Shown here piece after piece: positions 23,479-55,602 of a stretch of 64,000 nt of DNA. Under the pieces are notes generated by a model, which ran no database searches, had not been told where the DNA came from, and saw only the letters and a list, made by a program, of their open reading frames with translations. Both the position numbers and the translations under genes were made by a program. This DNA comes from a virus. The stretch is taken from the IMG/VR virus record IMGVR_UViG_3300010430_000020, positions 1 to 64,000 of that record. The stretch is one strand, 5' to 3'. Position 1 is the stretch's first letter. Each line of letters starts with the position of its first letter.

Positions 23479-23486
23479 TATTTATA
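23479..23486 (-). promoter_or_regulatory. T4 late promoter TATAAATA
   Basis: Exact consensus 33 nt upstream of the GIY-YIG start; gp55 is encoded in the window. Confidence 0.75.
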
Positions 23487-31401: not shown

Positions 31402-31720
31402 TGATTTTTCTAAATCGTTGGTTTGTTCTATTTCTTTTAAGATGTCTGAGAGTTTCTATGTTCTTATTTATAGTATTGCGAAGGCTATCGATGGGGTTAC
31501 CAACGACCTGATCAGCCCCCTTCTTAACAAGCTCATGCGCCCTAGCAACATCAGGGTTGGGAGATGTTCCCTTATTACGAATATTGCGAAGAACGGCCAC
31601 CATCATTTCTCTGGGCGTTGCTTTGTGACCCAACATGATTGGGTCGCGCGGCACCATTGTATTATCTCGCATTCTTGAATAAGGTTTAGATTTCATGTTC
31701 TTGTTTTTCTTTTGGTACAC
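31391..31720 (-). CDS. hypothetical basic protein
   Basis: ORF track. Confidence 0.6.
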   Translation of the reverse strand: MYQKKNKNMKSKPYSRMRDNTMVPRDPIMLGHKATPREMMVAVLRNIRNKGTSPNPDVARAHELVKKGADQVVGNPIDSLRNTINKNIETLRHLKRNRTNQRFRKIIET

Positions 31721-40277: not shown

Positions 40278-40486
40278 TGCTTCACTCCAAAATAACGGGT
40301 AAGTTCCCGAAAAGCGGCACGAGTCTTCTTCGCATCCTCCAGATCAATTCGTTGACAATTTTTTCCTCCGGCTTTATATCGACGCTTACATGTCTTATAC
40401 TCAATTTCGATATCTTCCAAATAATCAGCCAAGAGTTGTTTCATCAATGCTTCTTTTGAGTCCCATGATAGTTTCATTGTCATCAT
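40274..40486 (-). CDS. hypothetical protein
   Basis: Coupled to the gp43 stop. Confidence 0.6.
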   Translation of the reverse strand: MMTMKLSWDSKEALMKQLLADYLEDIEIEYKTCKRRYKAGGKNCQRIDLEDAKKTRAAFRELTRYFGVKQ

Positions 40487-42969
40487 CCAAAAAAATCCTC
40501 AATGGTGTACATCTCTTCAGTCTTCCAACCAATAACATCCGTAATCGAGCGCAGTGGCTGCAGGTATGCCTTTTCAAACTGCATATTGCGGTCGATATAC
40601 TCATACGCACCGAATTCCTTGGGCAGGTACCCAGGGGATGCAATAACGGTCTGATGGAGGGGATTTGGGACTTTGAGGTAAGCGAATTTGATCTTGTCCC
40701 CATCATATATCGGTGTCATATTCAATTTGTGCTTCTTTAGCAGATTGTTATATATCAGACTCCCTTTGGTGTGGATGGGTGTCCCTTTGGCATAGATTGT
40801 CTGGTGGTCTGTGTATTTAGTAAGCCCGTTAACCCCGCGCGGAAAGGCAATATCAGAGAAGGGCATCTCATCGAACCTCTTGCGAAAGTCCTCGACATAT
40901 TTGATGAGGGTTTCGTTGTCTTCTGTCAGGATAATTTTCAGGGATTCTTTCAGAGCGCGGCGGCAACACTCAGGTACTGAAGATCGAATGGCTTCGATCC
41001 CCATCATTTTTAATTCTGGCTCCTTATAACGTATGCCCTCTGAATCGAGAACATACAACACATACATTTTTTTGGCTTTCCAAATACCCTTAGATGCGAT
41101 GACTTCTCTTTTCATCACCATCGCATTCTTTTTGGCATTCATAATTTCGGCGAGTTGTCGGTATGCTCTGTCAATTTCTGGTTGGATAACCTTCTCGGAA
41201 AAAGAAGACAGTGTATCAACTGTATCAATACAATCATCCCCACTATGAAGATAGCGATGTACAATAGGAGCGAGATTGAGATAGATAGAGTCTGTGTCCA
41301 TAGCGACCACAAAGTCTTCATTCTCTGTTCCCAGCTTGTTGTTGATAAAACTATTTATGTGTTTCTCAACCCAACGGATGGAAAGCTGGCCAGACAATGT
41401 AATGGCCTCGGCATTGTCGGAATCATAGAACATGAACCACTGATTTCCAACAGCGCCGTAGGCCGAATTTAGGAAGATTTTCATCGCCATCTGAGCAGTC
41501 TGAAATTGATCGATCTTGTCGCCGACCTCTTCACCTGCTGCTTTGCGCTTCTCCCAGGCTACTTTTTGCAGACGATACTCGGTTCGCTTGCTAAAATATT
41601 TTTGCATAAGGGCTGGTAGAAAACCGATACGTACACGATCATAAAGACAGCCATTAGCAGCCATAGAATATTCGCTATCATTCGTAATCTTTCCTCCAAG
41701 GAGTTTCTCGACCGAAACATTTTCATTCCTCCCACGAAATGTTTCTGGACTGATATTATATTGTATTATAAGGTGTGGATACAACGACGTAAGGTCAAAT
41801 GACACCACCCATTCGTGCAATCCAGAAATAGGCTCCTTTACATATGCTCCTTCATATGCCACTGTTTTGTGATGCTTCTCCTTTAGTGGCACCACGGTCT
41901 TGAAAGACATCAAATAGTTGTGAATCACGATCTCCCAGGGTAGAACAGACCCCAGACTATCATTGAAATTCACCTTGTTATCGTATGCCATCACGAAAAT
42001 CAGATCAAGTAGCTTCTTCTTCTCGTTTAGGCGGTGTACCAAGTTCACATCTTTGATGTTGTATTCCAGGTACTTACGATAATCATTCTCATACAGATCA
42101 TCAAGATTTTCATATTCAGAAAAATCTATCTTTTTCTCACCCAGCTCCACATAAGCGATGTGATTTAGTGCATAACTCTCCTGCTGAGTGTATGTGAATT
42201 TCTTGTAGAGCTGCATACAGTCCAGGATACTTATGCCGAGAGGGACATATGTCTGCTGTTCCCGACCCATAACAAAGAGAGTCTTCTCGAATAGCTGCTC
42301 CCAGGGGCTAAGTTTGCGGGCCTGATGCTGCCCCAGAACCTTGGTGATCCTGTTGACGAGATATGGAATATCGAAGAACTCCACGTTCCATCCAGTCACC
42401 ACATCAGGTTGCCACCCATCGCTGTTCCAGGCTTGTATGAACCGCGCTAGCAGATCATGCTCATCCTTACAGAACACATAATGGACATTCTTGTCTGTGG
42501 GTTTGTATGGCTCCTTATAACCGAACACCAGGATACGGTCTCCCCGGCGCATGGTGAGCGCAGTAACAGGCTCCTTGGCATCCTCGATAAAGCGATCAAA
42601 GCCCGACTTGGGCAACTTGACCTCGATGTCAATCGTTACCACACTGATCTGTTCTACATCATATGGGACTTCGGCGGGGAACAGATCGTTGAGGAACAAG
42701 TACTTCCAATTGGTCAGTCCATAGATTTTGAAGCCGGTGACATCCTCATACCGCGCCAGGAATTCCTTGGCTTCCTTGATGGTATTAAAGGGCATCCTAT
42801 CGACTGGCTGATCATCCAGAGTACGATATTCGGCATCTGCCTGCCTCGATGGGACAAACAGGTATGGATGATATGGGATTTTGGTCTGTATACGCTTGCC
42901 GTTATTATACCCCCTAAACAATATGTTATTGCCATATTGGGCGACATGAGTATAGAATTTGCTCATCAT
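40483..42969 (-). CDS. 43: Family B DNA polymerase (T4 gp43)
   Basis: DIE exonuclease, GWN..FFD, SFDLTSLYP, K...NSAYG, DTDS, KKMY. Confidence 0.97.
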   Translation of the reverse strand: MMSKFYTHVAQYGNNILFRGYNNGKRIQTKIPYHPYLFVPSRQADAEYRTLDDQPVDRMPFNTIKEAKEFLARYEDVTGFKIYGLTNWKYLFLNDLFPAEVPYDVEQISVVTIDIEVKLPKSGFDRFIEDAKEPVTALTMRRGDRILVFGYKEPYKPTDKNVHYVFCKDEHDLLARFIQAWNSDGWQPDVVTGWNVEFFDIPYLVNRITKVLGQHQARKLSPWEQLFEKTLFVMGREQQTYVPLGISILDCMQLYKKFTYTQQESYALNHIAYVELGEKKIDFSEYENLDDLYENDYRKYLEYNIKDVNLVHRLNEKKKLLDLIFVMAYDNKVNFNDSLGSVLPWEIVIHNYLMSFKTVVPLKEKHHKTVAYEGAYVKEPISGLHEWVVSFDLTSLYPHLIIQYNISPETFRGRNENVSVEKLLGGKITNDSEYSMAANGCLYDRVRIGFLPALMQKYFSKRTEYRLQKVAWEKRKAAGEEVGDKIDQFQTAQMAMKIFLNSAYGAVGNQWFMFYDSDNAEAITLSGQLSIRWVEKHINSFINNKLGTENEDFVVAMDTDSIYLNLAPIVHRYLHSGDDCIDTVDTLSSFSEKVIQPEIDRAYRQLAEIMNAKKNAMVMKREVIASKGIWKAKKMYVLYVLDSEGIRYKEPELKMMGIEAIRSSVPECCRRALKESLKIILTEDNETLIKYVEDFRKRFDEMPFSDIAFPRGVNGLTKYTDHQTIYAKGTPIHTKGSLIYNNLLKKHKLNMTPIYDGDKIKFAYLKVPNPLHQTVIASPGYLPKEFGAYEYIDRNMQFEKAYLQPLRSITDVIGWKTEEMYTIEDFFG

Positions 42970-43025: not shown

Positions 43026-43106
43026 CAGGTCGCGTGAAGAAACTTATTGACTACCACAGCCAGTATAGTAGGATGCAAATCAACAGCAACGAGGAGTGAG
43101 ACCCCA
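43026..43106 (+). promoter_or_regulatory. Early promoter/leader cassette copy 4 (inverted)
   Basis: CAGGTCGCGTGAAGAAACTT-A-TTGACT-N16-TAGGAT ... CAACAGCAACGAGGAGTGAGACCCCAATG. Confidence 0.85.
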
Positions 43107-43319
43107 ATGACCAAGATCAAATATCTTAGCATGTTGCAGCAGATTTACTACACCGCCAACATGTCTGATAGCGATAATCCAGATAAGGCCGATTGGTTGG
43201 ATGCAGATGCCTGTGCTCACCAGTGCCGCTCCATCGATCAGATGCTTTTGAATCTCGTTGATGGCGGCAGCATCACAGCAGAAGAATTCCAGACCTTTTA
43301 TGACACATTGGGAGAGTGA
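43107..43319 (+). CDS. hypothetical early protein
   Basis: ATG directly after the cassette leader (MTKIKY). Confidence 0.75.
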   Translation: MTKIKYLSMLQQIYYTANMSDSDNPDKADWLDADACAHQCRSIDQMLLNLVDGGSITAEEFQTFYDTLGE

Positions 43320-43320
43320 A

Positions 43321-43521
43321 ATGAATGACTTTAAAATCACACTAGAAGAAGCACTATCACACTGGGCAAAAACTGCAACAGATGATGAACTCTACAGTAT
43401 GTTCAATTCAATAGGCGATCAGTTAGCTGATGGTCCTAATCTCAAGGAACTCCAGACGATACTGGAAATTCGTTCCGCCATCAGACCCGAAATTGAAAAA
43501 CGTATGGGGAGGAAAGTATGA
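43321..43521 (+). CDS. hypothetical early protein
   Basis: Start at MNDFK, right after the previous stop. Confidence 0.7.
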   Translation: MNDFKITLEEALSHWAKTATDDELYSMFNSIGDQLADGPNLKELQTILEIRSAIRPEIEKRMGRKV

Positions 43522-43730
43522 AGTTTGTACAGAAGCGTTTATCTATTGACGATCTGAAAAAAATGGTCAAGGATATGGACTTCATGCTAGAACGCTCAGA
43601 ACTTCATGCTGAATTGTCCGACAGAGCACGATATAATAGTTGCATAAGGACAGTTAGACACATGGCCATGCGCATGAACAGAGGCTATGATTGGGAGGAT
43701 TCTGAAAGCTGTGGCCAAAAAGAGAAATAG
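43518..43730 (+). CDS. hypothetical early protein
   Basis: ATGA overlap; GGAGG SD. Confidence 0.7.
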   Translation: MKFVQKRLSIDDLKKMVKDMDFMLERSELHAELSDRARYNSCIRTVRHMAMRMNRGYDWEDSESCGQKEK

Positions 43731-43953
43731 TTCAGTTCACGGGTATCGTATCAGAACATCTCCAAATGATGTTGGCTCGCGTACATGCTTAACCTGCTCT
43801 TCAACATTTAATAGTTGGGGAGCGGGTAACAGAATTTGTCCCCGGTGTAAAAATAGTGATGCATACAAAGTAGCTCGGGAGGATGATGGAGTTTTGGGAG
43901 TTGCAGGATTTGCATTATACGAAATAGAGAAAGATAAGATGCCAGATGAGTGA
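43687..43953 (+). CDS. Zn-ribbon protein
   Basis: CLTC..F.S.G.GNRICPRC. Confidence 0.7.
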   Translation: MIGRILKAVAKKRNSSVHGYRIRTSPNDVGSRTCLTCSSTFNSWGAGNRICPRCKNSDAYKVAREDDGVLGVAGFALYEIEKDKMPDE

Positions 43954-44146
43954 TAGTTGTAATCTAATACAAAATTGTATATTCAACCCATACGATGGAG
44001 AAGGATTAGAACTTGTGTGTAAGACACATGGTCACAAATTCAAAATTATGGGGGAGTCAGGAAGTTTTGCGATAGAAATTCCTAAGAAATGTCCGGTGGC
44101 CGATCAGGTCAATGTTGTTCCGTTTCCTTGGAGAAAGGTTTCGTAA
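43946..44146 (+). CDS. small Cys-containing protein
   Basis: ORF track; ends at the terminator. Confidence 0.6.
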   Translation: MSDSCNLIQNCIFNPYDGEGLELVCKTHGHKFKIMGESGSFAIEIPKKCPVADQVNVVPFPWRKVS

Positions 44147-44170
44147 AAAAGGGGGGCCGAAGCCCCCCTT
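44145..44170 (-). terminator. UUCG-tetraloop intrinsic terminator between convergent units
   Basis: AAGGGGGGC-TTCG-GCCCCCCTTTTTT. Confidence 0.9.
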
Positions 44171-44185
44171 ATGCCTTGTTAATAA

Positions 44186-47100
44186 CTAGGCTCCAGGTTT
44201 TTTGACCACTACGATAGGCTTGTCACCAACAGGCTCTGGTTCTGGCAAATCAGCCTCGACCACAGTCTCTACAGTTGGTTTTACCTTATCGATGGCTTTC
44301 TCGACAAGCTTGACTGGATCGAGACCCTTGGCCTTCACAGCTTCCACCACATCGGCTTCTACTGCCATAACGATATCGGCCTCGCCTGCTGGTGTCTCAA
44401 CCACTTCCAGCTTGGCCTCGGGAAGAATGTCTTCACTGGTATCCGTTAGGACCAGCTTATCACCTTCTTTCTCTAGCTCGACCAGCTGCGGTAAGACTTC
44501 CGGCATTTCTACCGTAACATCATCAACCACAACCTTTTCGAGAGGTGCTGTTACCGTTGCTTCCGGTAGCACTGGAACCGAGTCATTCGTCTCTAGGGCG
44601 GCCTTGACGACCTCCTCCAGGACAACACCCTTATCTTCCAATTCTGCCTTCACAGCAGGCTCTACAGCCAGCACAACGTCACTCATACCCTCATCCGTCT
44701 TGACCGGAATCAGCTCGACCTCATCGGCCTTCACTTCAACCGTGGCGTCTTCCAGGATAATGGCAGGGGCATCAGATGATGGCTTCTCATCTAGCTTAAC
44801 TTCTAGAAGCTGAGGAGCTTCCTCCGCCGCCAGGGTCACTTCGACCGTTGGTTTATCAGATGTCTCATCGATCAATAGAGTAGCTGGCTCCTTAGCGATT
44901 TCGTCTAGCTTTTCTACGACCTCCTCGACCTCCATAGCTTCAGCCATGTCTTCATCCTTGACTGTGGTGCTATCTGTTGGGACAACTTCCACATCAGCGA
45001 TGTTAACCGCCTTTTCTAAGACTTCGACTACATCTTCAACCGCAGCTTCTACTTCCTTATCAACCGCCACAATCAAGTCTGGCTGGCCTTCAGGAGTAAC
45101 AACTGCCACCAGCTCGGCATCCTCTGGAATGTCTTCTTTGACATCCACAAGATCGACACTGACGATTTCATTATTTGCAGGATCAGGATCGAGGACCGCT
45201 TCCACCACTTGAGGTAGGACTTCAGGAGTCGTGACCTCAACAGTATCCTTGGTCTCATCCATCTTATCAACCATTACCGTTACCGGCTCAACCTCTTCCT
45301 CTACTGCAGGAACTTCAGGGAGGGCATCATTGGTTTCGAGAGCGTCTTTTACAACTTCCTCGATGACCACACCTTCCGTCTCAAGCGCCTCTTTCTCAAT
45401 TGGGTCAATTGCGATAACAACGTCTGCCTTATCCTCATCGGTTTTGATGACCAGCAATTCCTTATTGTCTCCCACCTCAATTGTGGCATCCTCTACGACA
45501 ATAGATGGAATTTCCTTATTTGCCGGATTATCATCTAGCTTAACCGCTACCACCTGTGGGGACTCTTCTGCCGCCAGGGTCACTTCGACCGTTGGCTTAT
45601 CTGAATCCTTGTCCACAACAATAGTTGCAGGCTCCTTGGCGATTTCGTCTAGCTTTTCTACGACTGCCTCGACCTTAGAAGCTTCTTCAACCTTGGCTTC
45701 ATCGAGTACAGGGGCATCTACCAGGACATCTGCCTGATTGATTGCCTTCTCAACGACTTCGGCCAAATCTTTGACACCATCCTTTTTAAGCTCCTCGACA
45801 ACCTCTGGTTTGGCCACGACAACCATGTCTGGCTGGCCATCAGGGGTTACCACAGGCATCAACGCGCCATCAGCGGGGATATCCTCTGCAACAGGCTTTA
45901 ACTCCACTGCAGGCTCTTCCACGACGATTTCAGGGGCATCCTTTAGAACGACTTCCATAATAGGCTCAACGACATCTGGTAGAGTCATCTCAACCGTTGG
46001 TTTTTCGTCATCCGTTTTATCCACCAGGACTGTTACATCCTCGGGATGGATTTCGATTTCTTCCTTGGTCTCTTCATCGATAACAACCTTGGGCTCATCA
46101 ACCAGCTCAGGGGCATCAACGATTTCCTTGGCAACCTCTAGAAGATCAGTCTTGGCCTTTTCCAGGACTTCAACGACTTCTGGTGCTGCTGCGACCACAA
46201 CGTCTGATTTGCCTTCTTCAGTTTTGACCACCACCAGCTCGGCATCGTCTGACACCTCTACCATAGCATCCTCAACCTTTAGAGGAGGCATATCAGTTAC
46301 GGCATCTTTGTTCTCTTCATCAATCTTCAATTCGACAACAGGAACATCCTCTACGAGGTCTTTCTTGACTTCGAGAGTTTCTTTCTTGTCATCTTCTTTA
46401 TTAACGAGAACAATATCAGCCTTTTTCTCTTCGACTTCAGCAACTACTTCGGCCTTATCGGCTTCTTCTAGTTTGACTTCATCGACTGGCTCGGATGTTT
46501 TGACTTCTTCAACCACCTCTGCGGCGGCACTCTCTACAACACCCTTGACATCAATATCTTTGGCTTCAAGTTCGTCCTTCAGGACAGGATCAACAGCCAC
46601 GACCACATCTGGCTTGCCTTCCGGCATGACCACTGGTAGCAGTACTGCATCTTCCTTGATATCCTCAACCGTATCTTCAAGCTTTACTGCAGGAATATCA
46701 GCCTTTGTGGGCTTGTCATCCTTTTTCAATTCAACAACAGAAGGAATTTCCTTTGGTAGAGTCACCTCTACTGTGGGCTTATCGGCTTTTTCCTTATCAA
46801 CCAAGACAGTTTTCTTTTCTTCAGCCTTCTCGGTCTTTTCAGGGAGTTTGGGTGCGGCATCCAGAGCGTCAACGACTTCTTTAACTGTGTCAACAATATC
46901 TACTTTTGCCTCATCCAGGAGCTTCTTATCATCTTCCTTCAGCGCAACGACCACATCTGCTTTCCCAGCTTCCGTTTTCACGGGCAGGAGAACCACATCA
47001 TCTGAAACCTCGATGGTGGCATCTTTCAGCTCAACATCGATCTTGGAGTCGCCTTTTTTATCGACCTTGGCTTCAATGATCTGAGGCTTATTGTCGGGAG

Positions 47101-47983
47101 CGCTTACTTCAACAGTGACTTCTTTCTTGTCAGCCTTTTTCTCGGCTTTCTTTTCAGCAATCTCTGCTTTCTTCTCTTCTTTCTTTTCGGCTTTCTCTTC
47201 TTTCTCTAGAAGTTTCTCTTCGATCTTCTTGGACTTTTCCGCGATCTTTTCTTCGACCTTGGCCAGTTTATCCTCAATCTTGAGATCGGCTTCTTTGAGT
47301 TTTTTGACGTGCTCCTTGGCCGCTTCTTTTTTGTGGCCTAGAGTTTTCATCAGAGCTTCTGTTTCTGCCTCATCGATCTTTTCTGGATCATCGAGGTCCA
47401 TAACACCAACTGGCTTGCCAGCTGAGTTATACATATAGCGACGGAAGCCCATACGCTGCTTACGCAACTTGGCGCGGCCACCACTATCAAACTTGACCTT
47501 ACCAGAATCCGGCAGAACCTTAAACAGCTCATCTTCTTTGACTGTCAGTGCATCCTTGACTTCAACAACGCCACTTTCCAGCATTGGTTCGCCAGCTTTG
47601 CGAAGCTTGTAGGTTACATACAACACGCCACCATCAAAAACAGAACCCTCTAATCTCAATGTAGATGAGATTGGGAACTTAACATAGACGTTGCCATCGG
47701 CGATTCCCTTATGGAAATACACATCATCTGCTTCTGCTGGCTCTTTTGTTTCGGTAGCTTTAATTACTAGCAGGCCGCCTTCATGAGAGGCACCTACATC
47801 GGTCACATTGTATCCGACCATTGATACCTGAACAACAAATGTTTCGGCGTCGGTTTGTACAATATTGTAAGGGGGATAGTCTTCTGAAAAGTATTCTGAA
47901 CCTAGTCCGTCCACCACTTTGAATAGGTGATCGAATCCTACGCCCAGTTTCTTTAGAAACTCGTAGCGATTGTCTACAGACAT
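44186..47983 (-). CDS. Giant Hsp20/alpha-crystallin-domain protein with 8 acidic repeats (~1265 aa)
   Basis: N-terminal GVGFD.LF...YPPYNI...YFHKGIA...F...DGGVL; AAGGAG SD before ATG 47983. Confidence 0.85.
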   Translation of the reverse strand: MSVDNRYEFLKKLGVGFDHLFKVVDGLGSEYFSEDYPPYNIVQTDAETFVVQVSMVGYNVTDVGASHEGGLLVIKATETKEPAEADDVYFHKGIADGNVYVKFPISSTLRLEGSVFDGGVLYVTYKLRKAGEPMLESGVVEVKDALTVKEDELFKVLPDSGKVKFDSGGRAKLRKQRMGFRRYMYNSAGKPVGVMDLDDPEKIDEAETEALMKTLGHKKEAAKEHVKKLKEADLKIEDKLAKVEEKIAEKSKKIEEKLLEKEEKAEKKEEKKAEIAEKKAEKKADKKEVTVEVSAPDNKPQIIEAKVDKKGDSKIDVELKDATIEVSDDVVLLPVKTEAGKADVVVALKEDDKKLLDEAKVDIVDTVKEVVDALDAAPKLPEKTEKAEEKKTVLVDKEKADKPTVEVTLPKEIPSVVELKKDDKPTKADIPAVKLEDTVEDIKEDAVLLPVVMPEGKPDVVVAVDPVLKDELEAKDIDVKGVVESAAAEVVEEVKTSEPVDEVKLEEADKAEVVAEVEEKKADIVLVNKEDDKKETLEVKKDLVEDVPVVELKIDEENKDAVTDMPPLKVEDAMVEVSDDAELVVVKTEEGKSDVVVAAAPEVVEVLEKAKTDLLEVAKEIVDAPELVDEPKVVIDEETKEEIEIHPEDVTVLVDKTDDEKPTVEMTLPDVVEPIMEVVLKDAPEIVVEEPAVELKPVAEDIPADGALMPVVTPDGQPDMVVVAKPEVVEELKKDGVKDLAEVVEKAINQADVLVDAPVLDEAKVEEASKVEAVVEKLDEIAKEPATIVVDKDSDKPTVEVTLAAEESPQVVAVKLDDNPANKEIPSIVVEDATIEVGDNKELLVIKTDEDKADVVIAIDPIEKEALETEGVVIEEVVKDALETNDALPEVPAVEEEVEPVTVMVDKMDETKDTVEVTTPEVLPQVVEAVLDPDPANNEIVSVDLVDVKEDIPEDAELVAVVTPEGQPDLIVAVDKEVEAAVEDVVEVLEKAVNIADVEVVPTDSTTVKDEDMAEAMEVEEVVEKLDEIAKEPATLLIDETSDKPTVEVTLAAEEAPQLLEVKLDEKPSSDAPAIILEDATVEVKADEVELIPVKTDEGMSDVVLAVEPAVKAELEDKGVVLEEVVKAALETNDSVPVLPEATVTAPLEKVVVDDVTVEMPEVLPQLVELEKEGDKLVLTDTSEDILPEAKLEVVETPAGEADIVMAVEADVVEAVKAKGLDPVKLVEKAIDKVKPTVETVVEADLPEPEPVGDKPIVVVKKPGA

Positions 47984-48020
47984 ATGAGGTCTCCTTTTTA
48001 CGCGCGTAAACGAGATGTGA
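47984..48020 (-). promoter_or_regulatory. ROSE-like SD-sequestering hairpin (giant sHSP leader)
   Basis: UCUC(G)UUU can pair with AAGGAGA, leaving a bulged G. Confidence 0.5.
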
Positions 48021-48047
48021 TGGTGTAAATTTACCATATATTTAGTA

Positions 48048-48069
48048 GGGGGTGGATTTCTCCACCCCC
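48048..48069 (-). terminator. GC-rich hairpin after hsp20, followed by a CTAAATA late-type element
   Basis: GGGGGTGGA-GAAA-TCCACCCCC; no long U-tract. Confidence 0.55.
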
Positions 48070-48078
48070 GGTCATGCG

Positions 48079-48534
48079 TCACCGCTCCTCTTGCAGGAGT
48101 AATTTTTCATCATTGACATCGGTATCTGCCTCAAGATGTTTACCTATTGGTATCTGTCTTGGTTTTTTATGCTCGGGTATCTCTCTATCGAGCAAAATTT
48201 TCAATATTCCATCCTCTAAAGATACACCTATTATCTTCACATCCGGCGACAGGACAAATTGTCTCCTAAAAGAGCGCATTCCTATGCCTTTGTGCATATA
48301 TTGCTCGTTGTTCTCTGGATTATCCTTTTTACCGGATATCTTGAGTACATCCTCAGCAAATTCAACTGATAGATCAGACTCCTTGAAACCGGCGACCGCC
48401 AGCTCTAGTAATGTCTGATGTCCATCAAGTTTTAATATGTTGTATGGTGGGTAATTGGACTGGTTCGTGATGTTCTCGCGGTTCATTTCCGCAAATAGGC
48501 GATCTAATCCAACACTGTATGGTGTGTGCATCAT
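48079..48534 (-). CDS. hsp20: Small heat shock protein (IbpA-like Hsp20)
   Basis: VGLDRLF, NYPPYNI, ELAVAGF, YMHKGIG.RSF.RQF, L.DGIL, KPRQIPI; AGGAGG SD. Confidence 0.93.
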   Translation of the reverse strand: MMHTPYSVGLDRLFAEMNRENITNQSNYPPYNILKLDGHQTLLELAVAGFKESDLSVEFAEDVLKISGKKDNPENNEQYMHKGIGMRSFRRQFVLSPDVKIIGVSLEDGILKILLDREIPEHKKPRQIPIGKHLEADTDVNDEKLLLQEER

Positions 48535-48604
48535 TTCTTCCTCCTTCCAAAGCAAGGTTACATTATTGTTGCAGCCGCTATTGCGCACTGCACTCTTATT
48601 TATA
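48535..48604 (-). promoter_or_regulatory. Late promoter TATAAATA plus ROSE-like RNA thermometer leader
   Basis: TATAAATA at 48604-48597; CCUU(G)CUU pairs with AAGGAGG. Confidence 0.7.
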
Positions 48605-48611
48605 TGCTTTG

Positions 48612-48884
48612 TCATTTTCTCAGGAAGGTAAAGTTCAGCACCGCCATTATCACCGCCGTGACAATGGTTGATACAGCCAAATACATGCCTCGTTGAACAG
48701 GTACAAATGTGTCACGGTTTATATAGTACTCCCTCAGTTTCTTTTCTAGTTGGAAGTTATCATCATTGATTTCGGATTTGAGAGCTATCAAATCACGCTC
48801 TAGATGTAGTATCTGTTTCTCGATATTTTTTGTTCGTTCGTCAATACGGGCCAATAGTACAGAGTTATCGTTAGGTTCTGCCAT
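48612..48884 (-). CDS. coiled coil plus C-terminal TM protein (holin-like candidate)
   Basis: LLARIDERTKNI, single C-terminal TM; upstream CTAAATA. Confidence 0.6.
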   Translation of the reverse strand: MAEPNDNSVLLARIDERTKNIEKQILHLERDLIALKSEINDDNFQLEKKLREYYINRDTFVPVQRGMYLAVSTIVTAVIMAVLNFTFLRK

Positions 48885-55371: not shown

Positions 55372-55602
55372 TCAAACTCCGTTGTAATCCATCAAGTTAG
55401 AATTGTAGTCAATCTCCGCCAACTTCAATTCCTTCCAACACTTCTGTCCGCCCGTGGTATTTATACTCACACAATGATACCAATTCTCGCCACCATTCCC
55501 AAATTTCCCATGTTTATATTGCACGCCTATGACCTGTATGGTCTCATGGGTCACTAAATCTTCAACATAATCACCTACGCTAAAGGGAATGGATACCTGC
55601 AT
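55372..55602 (-). CDS. hypothetical protein
   Basis: FSVGDYV; GGAGG SD. Confidence 0.6.
   Translation of the reverse strand: MQVSIPFSVGDYVEDLVTHETIQVIGVQYKHGKFGNGGENWYHCVSINTTGGQKCWKELKLAEIDYNSNLMDYNGV

Follow-up and report, generated by a model that had tools for sequence, protein, structure and literature searches.

The 64,000-nucleotide (nt) stretch of viral DNA analyzed here (the window; positions 1 to 64,000 of the IMG/VR record IMGVR_UViG_3300010430_000020) encodes a giant protein in which an sHSP (small heat shock protein) core is joined, through a linker and a long predicted helix, to eight acidic repeats arranged as four AB pairs. The gene lies directly downstream of an ordinary hsp20 gene, and both the architecture and the gene order are conserved in metagenomic relatives. 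We propose that the two genes form a late two-subunit phage sHSP system, in which the giant subunit would supply a charged, non-sticky shell, a reading that we hold tentatively, at a probability of about 0.42. The giant gene, its signals and its N-terminal parts are positioned in the window as follows.

44186..47983, minus strand: giant sHSP gene, an open reading frame (ORF) translated into 1265 amino acids (aa; 137.6 kDa, pI 4.27, net charge -174), with its ATG start at 47983
47990..47996, minus strand: Shine-Dalgarno sequence AAGGAGA, 6 nt 5' of the giant ATG
44152..44168, minus strand: intrinsic-terminator-like GC-rich hairpin and T run, 18 nt past the giant stop codon
47876..47983, minus strand: N-terminal arm, residues 1-36, Phe/Tyr-rich, as in the arm of the neighbouring Hsp20
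47597..47875, minus strand: alpha-crystallin domain (ACD), residues 37-129, from AlphaFold2 (AF2) strands 39-127, Foldseek, phrog_432 and NCBIfam IbpA
47564..47572, minus strand: V-E-V, residues 138-140, which follow the ACD and are a candidate IxI/V-type anchoring motif, in a predicted strand (AF2)
47402..47431, minus strand: linker motif [YF]-[ND]-S-x-G-x-P-[VI]-x-[VI], residues 185-194, from the family alignment; predicted local distance difference test (pLDDT) ~87 (AF2)
47135..47329, minus strand: long K/E-rich helix, residues 219-283 (AF2), a spacer or coiled coil

The initial annotation, made from the sequence before any database search, had described a ~1265-aa hsp20 paralogue at 44186-47983 whose first ~125 aa form a divergent IbpA-type domain, and both statements were borne out. 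Residues 9-124 match the Hsp20 family phrog_432 (E 9e-18), and the N-terminus matches the NCBIfam models IbpA (E 2.6e-10) and IbpB (E 9.9e-10) as well as the neighbouring Hsp20 (27% identity, E 4e-13, BLASTP). An AF2 model of residues 1-300, built from 48 sequences (mean pLDDT 76.5), contains a beta-sandwich over residues 39-127 with pLDDT of 84-93 outside one loop; this low-confidence loop, residues 85-93, lies where bacterial sHSPs have the beta-6 loop that is swapped between dimer partners. When the model was compared with the PDB by Foldseek, the top 50 matches were all sHSPs, with AgsA and the sHSP of cyanophage S-ShM2 (7ck4) among the best, and the leading matches 4zja, 7ck4 and 4zj9 reached template modelling (TM) scores by target of 0.68-0.83 (0.83 for 4zj9, with a root-mean-square deviation of 2.5); the N-terminus is thus predicted to fold as an ACD. 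The sHSP hallmark positions P37, P38, N40, G93, F103 and G119 are conserved, and in the N-terminal arm G16 and D18 are nearly invariant in an alignment with Hsp20s. Behind the ACD, the position of V-E-V is occupied in homologues by V-E-I, V-Q-I, I-A-I or V-P-V, and a second candidate IxI/V motif, P-V-G-V, is found at 191-194. Residues 1 to ~145 thereby resemble a complete sHSP core, comprising an aromatic arm, an ACD and an IxI/V-like strand that may act in anchoring. Monomers of sHSPs are of ~12-43 kDa (PMC3827213), a range that the 137.6-kDa protein far exceeds; it is therefore an ACD protein and an sHSP paralogue, yet no canonical small heat shock protein.

Comparison with an orthologue on the metagenome contig L090 (80.6% protein identity, with synonymous sites near saturation) gave a ratio of nonsynonymous to synonymous substitution rates (dN/dS) of 0.072 overall, with values of 0.044 (ACD), 0.098 (linker) and 0.071 (repeats). 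Because the gene has its own Shine-Dalgarno site and terminator together with a low dN/dS, these sequence data indicate that it is real and under strong purifying selection. A longer GTG frame reaching 48082 was rejected as the start, as it runs over the hsp20 stop and is without a ribosome site. A search of 5.8 billion protein clusters recovered 22 proteins, namely the window's own and 21 homologues of 905-1386 aa with 33-62% identity.

The eight repeats start near residues 283, 391, 522, 650, 785, 900, 1033 and 1146 and form the following pairs, delimited by repeat alignment and profile matches.

46421..47137, minus strand: AB pair 1 (A1 46814-47137, B1 46421-46813)
45632..46420, minus strand: AB pair 2 (A2 46037-46420, B2 45632-46036)
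44888..45631, minus strand: AB pair 3 (A3 45287-45631, B3 44888-45286), the pair modelled with AF2
44189..44887, minus strand: AB pair 4 (A4 44549-44887, B4 44189-44548)

An alignment of all eight agrees with the alternating A and B signatures and the count of eight recorded in the initial annotation, with repeat lengths of 108-135 aa. Residues 301-1265 contain not a single Phe, Tyr, Trp or Cys, as had been noticed before, and in addition no Arg; the four AB modules together amount to ~106 kDa with a net charge of -168. At the DNA level, direct repeats occur with periods of ~744-780 nt and ~375-405 nt, and a 25-nt string is present exactly twice (44827-44851 and 45571-45595), where a persisting exact duplication had been seen near 44825 and 45571. 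The spacing of its copies, 744 nt, equals one AB pair, and none would be expected by chance. The string lies inside the junction of pairs 3 and 4, the DNA of which is 72% identical to that of the junction of pairs 2 and 3. This period of one pair and the exact duplicate suggest that the array grew by AB-pair duplication. An assembly artefact was rejected, since the repeats are just 60-75% identical to one another in DNA and the independent contig L090 has the same eight-repeat gene.

The predicted structure of the AB pair bears on how the repeat region should be pictured. The AF2 model of pair 3 (residues 785-1032, 53-row alignment) has a mean pLDDT of 90.5 and a predicted TM score (pTM) of 0.84; in each repeat about six strands are combined with two helices, behind which comes a linker helix of low confidence, and in view of the high pTM across both repeats the model sets A and B in a fixed arrangement. 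The earlier picture of a polyanionic repeat arm therefore holds for its acidity but not as a loose low-complexity tail, as compact two-domain modules are predicted and the constraint equals that on the ACD in strength (dN/dS 0.07); an intrinsically disordered, low-complexity region was rejected on the high AF2 confidence and the strong constraint. Similarly, the earlier suggestion of a condensate former seems unlikely, because the residues that usually make proteins sticky and drive condensates, Arg and aromatics, are missing from the repeats. Against the sequence profiles of Pfam, PHROG, NCBIfam and PDB the repeats gave no match, Foldseek searches with the AB-pair model found nothing at E <=0.001 (best E 0.28 in PDB and 0.37 in BFVD), and the ESM Atlas gave no usable match. 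As the fold searches were queried with the pair rather than with a single repeat, we make no claim of a new fold.

The homologue search that the initial annotation had called for was run with a profile of the eight repeats and returned only 53 relatives among 1.84 billion representative proteins. When ACD and repeat profiles were mapped onto them, most ACD-bearing members had 2, 4, 6 or 8 repeats, and the odd counts (1, 3, 5 and 9) were traced to the truncated protein P0049, to missed-repeat gaps or to overlapping profile matches; the pair is therefore supported as the unit. The repeat regions of ACD-fused members follow a common rule of composition, with 0-0.8% Arg, no Cys, less than 1% aromatics (except P0043 and P0058, 2.3-2.6%) and a net charge of -11 to -23 per 100 aa (except P0060), at Lys contents of 0.9 to 13%. 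A single AB pair without an ACD is found in about twenty shorter proteins, and ten ACD-less AB proteins scanned against Pfam yielded no Pfam domain. Nine metagenomic stand-alone proteins with one AB pair (P0044, P0045, P0047, P0048, P0050, P0051, P0052, P0054 and P0056) have in common an N-terminal module of ~40 aa, YDHKFVFAWKxGxLDF...NKHFDF, which resembles the last ACD strands, and most of them end in a basic Trp/Arg tail such as RRWWRRF. In the metagenomic locus L092:304-2350, the ACD-less P0042 and the product of the next gene, by eye a candidate FkbM-type methyltransferase, have a common basic leader, W-[RK]-x-[RK]-x-N-P-[RH]-R-x-R-P-x-L-P.

Outside these proteins, no AB repeats were found among the cultured phages of the phage collection, and a scan of species-representative prokaryote genomes gave no relative. 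IMG/VR was scanned with the family and AB alignments, with the repeat region and with two patterns made by hand; ordinary Hsp20 genes were all that came back, if anything, and the candidate L081, an unrelated large protein, was discarded as matching by chance. No paper describing such an sHSP-plus-repeat protein was found in the literature. The initial annotation had known of no described equivalent, and cultured phages, Pfam, PHROG, NCBIfam, PDB and the literature indeed offered none. By these comparisons the AB repeats are an undescribed domain family, and a rare one (53 clusters).

Between the core and the repeats, the linker motif at residues 185-194 has a nearly invariant S187 and G189 in the family. 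A looser pattern, free of the [ND] and Pro positions, occurs in 24 of the 39 ACD-bearing members and also matches the N-terminus of the ACD-less P0059, P0062 and P0063. This second ACD-less subgroup begins with [YF]-D-S-x-G-R-P-[IV], which is also present in the giant's linker; in the three proteins just named, the N-terminal Y-D-S-x-G-R-P-[IV]-Y corresponds to the giant's post-ACD motif. P0024 carries three copies of the short motif, two of them between repeats. The motif may be a docking peptide. The K/E-rich segment recognized earlier after the ACD is predicted as one long helix (219-283), with pLDDT of 82-94 over residues 211-270, then 68, and then 45 near the helix end. It is confined to the window's subclade and lacking in distant homologues such as P0013 and P0017.

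The partner gene and the signals around it are the following.

48079..48534, minus strand: partner hsp20, with a probable ATG at 48534, a longest ORF to 48615 and a C-terminal I-P-I motif
48597-48604, minus strand: TATAAATA, a perfect late box of T4 type, which lies 11 nt within the longest hsp20 ORF
48037..48069, minus strand: hsp20-giant spacer, with a 9-bp hairpin (48048-48069) and then a late-promoter-like motif CTAAATATA (48037-48045)

The upstream gene (48079-48615, minus strand) is an Hsp20 (PF00011, E 1.9e-16; phrog_432, E 5.8e-39). Since the late box falls inside its longest frame, translation probably begins at the ATG at 48534; this codon is preceded by GGAGGAG and would give an Hsp20 of ~151 aa and 17 kDa. 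The exact box TATAAATA occurs four times in the window, always on the minus strand (23479-23486, 31465-31472, 48597-48604 and 55458-55465), at 31-63 nt 5' of where the next minus-strand ORF is listed to start or, for hsp20, within the longest frame as given above. In the spacer of L090, the same hairpin (L090:3216-3239) with compensatory stem changes and the same CTAAATATA motif are found; the motif also occurs in L093, and L091 has a hairpin with GATAAATA, so that a (C/G)(T/A)TAAATA motif precedes the giant gene in four lineages. Judging from these motifs, hsp20 and the giant gene would be late genes. Synonymous sites of the genes on either side are saturated, yet compensatory changes have preserved the hairpin itself, which could serve in partial termination, in processing or in stability.

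The position of the giant gene directly downstream of hsp20, as first described for the window, is conserved in all three ACD-bearing relatives in which gene order was read (L090, L091 and L093), at 38-82% repeat identity. In L090 the order is clamp loader, small genes, hsp20 and giant; in L091, hsp20 is followed by a six-repeat form of 931 aa and a Dda-like helicase, with the DNA polymerase further on; and in L093 it is hsp20 and giant. In a quick ACD tree, 29 of the 31 giant-type ACDs were separated from the ordinary phage Hsp20s, with weak support (78 in the Shimodaira-Hasegawa-like approximate likelihood ratio test, SH-aLRT); a single ancient duplication and fusion behind the giant ACDs would agree with this. 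A complex prediction for Hsp20 and giant residues 1-200 scored 0.23 relative to a mark of 0.32 and is no evidence either way.

The giant gene is surrounded by a T4-type replication module in which every gene is on the minus strand.

Minus strand: gp47/gp46-like nuclease subunits, clamp loader, UvsX, gp41-type helicase, primase, ribonucleotide reductase and gp43 DNA polymerase genes of the replication module
40483-42969, minus strand: gp43 DNA polymerase gene
43047-44146, plus strand: small ORFs of 66-90 aa that separate the polymerase gene from the giant gene and converge on the terminator of the latter, with a sigma-70-like promoter match at 43047-43074

The giant gene has clamp-loader genes on one side and the DNA polymerase gene on the other, rather than structural genes. 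The parent IMG/VR record has 79 kb, with a completeness estimate of 44% (CheckV). In the polymerase comparison, cyanomyoviruses were the closest cultured relatives, at 46% identity only, and megablast found no match among cultured phages. Marine sediment metagenome runs (X3 and X4) contain near-identical pieces of the window, and contigs from four metagenome runs cover it in short low-depth pieces with gaps over 45510-46153, a coverage that carries no information on absence or structure and in which neither joints nor variants in repeat number appeared. Among public runs none with RNA was listed, which has no bearing on expression. The phage that carries the giant gene is T4-like and of marine sediment origin.

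In the two-subunit system that we propose, the sHSP core would provide the dimer and oligomer contacts and, as a holdase, bind clients, probably in mixed oligomers with the adjacent 17-kDa Hsp20. The docking-type motif and the rigid K/E helix would project four compact AB modules from the core, and these modules, strongly charged and free of Arg, aromatics and Cys, would form a folded shell that keeps sHSP-client assemblies soluble and limits their size. The most likely clients would be structural proteins of the phage, which are produced in large amounts late in infection, and the shell would take to an extreme, and in folded form, the acidic C-terminal extension of a cyanobacterial sHSP.

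Several observations weigh against this proposal. The window's ACD scores 15.1 bits on Pfam PF00011, under the gathering threshold of 20.8, which the homologues P0013, P0017 and P0024 pass. The promoters were assigned by motif alone, and the number of TATAAATA boxes is not above chance (4 observed vs 2.66 expected). In addition, AB pairs exist without any ACD, and the module therefore has a role of its own. An inert shell, moreover, would not obviously need folded domains, conserved polar motifs (DATxEVSD and KTxEGxxD) and a low dN/dS, a pattern that matches specific binding no less well.

Such a function is the core of the first alternative, in which the AB modules bind a specific phage morphogenetic protein or host factor and the sHSP core serves as the oligomerizing anchor of a multivalent scaffold for assembly. 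The pairs are compact and conserved, with invariant polar positions and a dN/dS of 0.07, stand-alone single pairs are attached to other N-terminal pieces, repeat number steps by one pair (2, 4, 6, 8) as if valency varied, and the docking-type motif precedes pairs in P0024 and is N-terminal in ACD-less members. However, surfaces without Arg and aromatics would be unusual as hot spots of protein binding, and the rule of composition holds even at ~30% sequence identity, which points to a bulk physical property; we regard this hub as somewhat unlikely. A broader proposal takes the AB pair as an unseen fold and domain family that makes the sHSP oligomer a modular platform, to which pairs would be fused in sets of 1 to 4 or added in trans, via docking of the peptide [YF]-[ND]-S-x-G-x-P-[VI]-x-[VI] in an Hsp20 groove, giving a tunable charge-coated chaperone particle for virion assembly in T4-like sediment phages; stated in full, it is decidedly doubtful.

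Alternatively, the ACD might fix the four acidic modules to the capsid or within the prohead, as a decoration, spacer, scaffold or polyanionic coat. Late-promoter-like signals would suit a virion protein, folded modules in tandem are reminiscent of T4 Hoc and other head decoration proteins, and a charged coat could matter in marine sediments, where near-identical pieces of the window were found. Nevertheless, the gene sits in the replication module, away from structural genes, there are no structural-protein PHROG matches, and the ACD is not known as a capsid-binding domain, all of which make a place in the virion improbable; no Ig-like (Hoc-type) fold was among the matches listed in the PDB and BFVD searches of the AB pair. 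Least probable is a DNA mimic or polyanion decoy that soaks up host DNA-binding, restriction or defence proteins or cations, as the rigid folded tandem modules, the net negative charge conserved whatever the Lys content, the avoidance of Arg and the precedent of the acidic mimics ArdA and Ocr in mobile elements are set against late-type rather than early signals, a 3.8-kb gene that would be a slow and costly counter-defence, searches that turned up no homology or fold match to known mimics, and an sHSP-core fusion for which a mimic offers no rationale.

Whichever function applies, a conserved 138-kDa family breaks the rule that sHSPs are small and have short flexible tails, and it adds an uncharacterised, confidently predicted domain family without a structural relative in the PDB and BFVD searches. 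It suggests that uncultured T4-like phages have a device dedicated to proteostasis or assembly, and the rule of composition (no Arg, aromatics or Cys at a fixed net charge) may interest designers of soluble, non-sticky protein shells. Nature here also provides a test case for the way in which the C-terminal extension governs how soluble and how large sHSP-client complexes become.

Among known systems, the IscA/SufA/HesB fold repeatedly topped the weak Foldseek lists with one repeat aligned (2d2a, 1r94, 1x0g and 1nwb), with a similar hint in a further search, at scores under the tool's meaningful level and below that of chance arrangements; as the repeats are also without cysteines, this likeness is kept as a lead only. 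The three cluster-binding Cys of these carriers are absent from the repeats, with no Cys in residues 301-1265 or in any ACD-fused repeat region, and there is no sequence similarity. Ocr and ArdA are, like the giant, strongly acidic, rigid proteins of mobile elements, whereas here late-type signals and fusion to a chaperone core are found; no homology or fold match emerged, and no mimic of this type was among the matches listed in the PDB and BFVD searches, lists that cannot exclude one. Ordinary phage sHSPs, which have been suggested to help capsid maturation (PMC3827213), provide the best structure and sequence matches, have a homologous N-terminal arm and ACD and are likewise encoded in T4-like phage genomes. 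They are, however, of ~18 kDa with a short C-terminal extension, whereas the giant of 138 kDa has ~1120 extra residues (the helix and eight folded repeats) and, unlike them, coexists with a normal Hsp20 gene.

In E. coli, IbpA and IbpB form a two-sHSP system of tandem paralogues that work together (PMC6834283; PMC10708888). By analogy, the tandem paralogous sHSP genes of the window, with an N-terminus that matches both models, may reflect a similar division of labour; IbpA and IbpB are each of ~16 kDa, whereas here the second subunit has a new domain array and the heteromer is only proposed. An experimental precedent for the proposed shell is NKBG-sHsp of Picosynechococcus: past its IXI/V motif this protein has an acidic extension, shown by experiment to favour soluble complexes with clients and to suppress co-aggregation (PMC12925178). 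Acidic sequence after the anchoring motif is common to both proteins, but the extension of NKBG-sHsp is short and not described as folded, whereas that of the giant comprises four compact two-domain modules of ~106 kDa.

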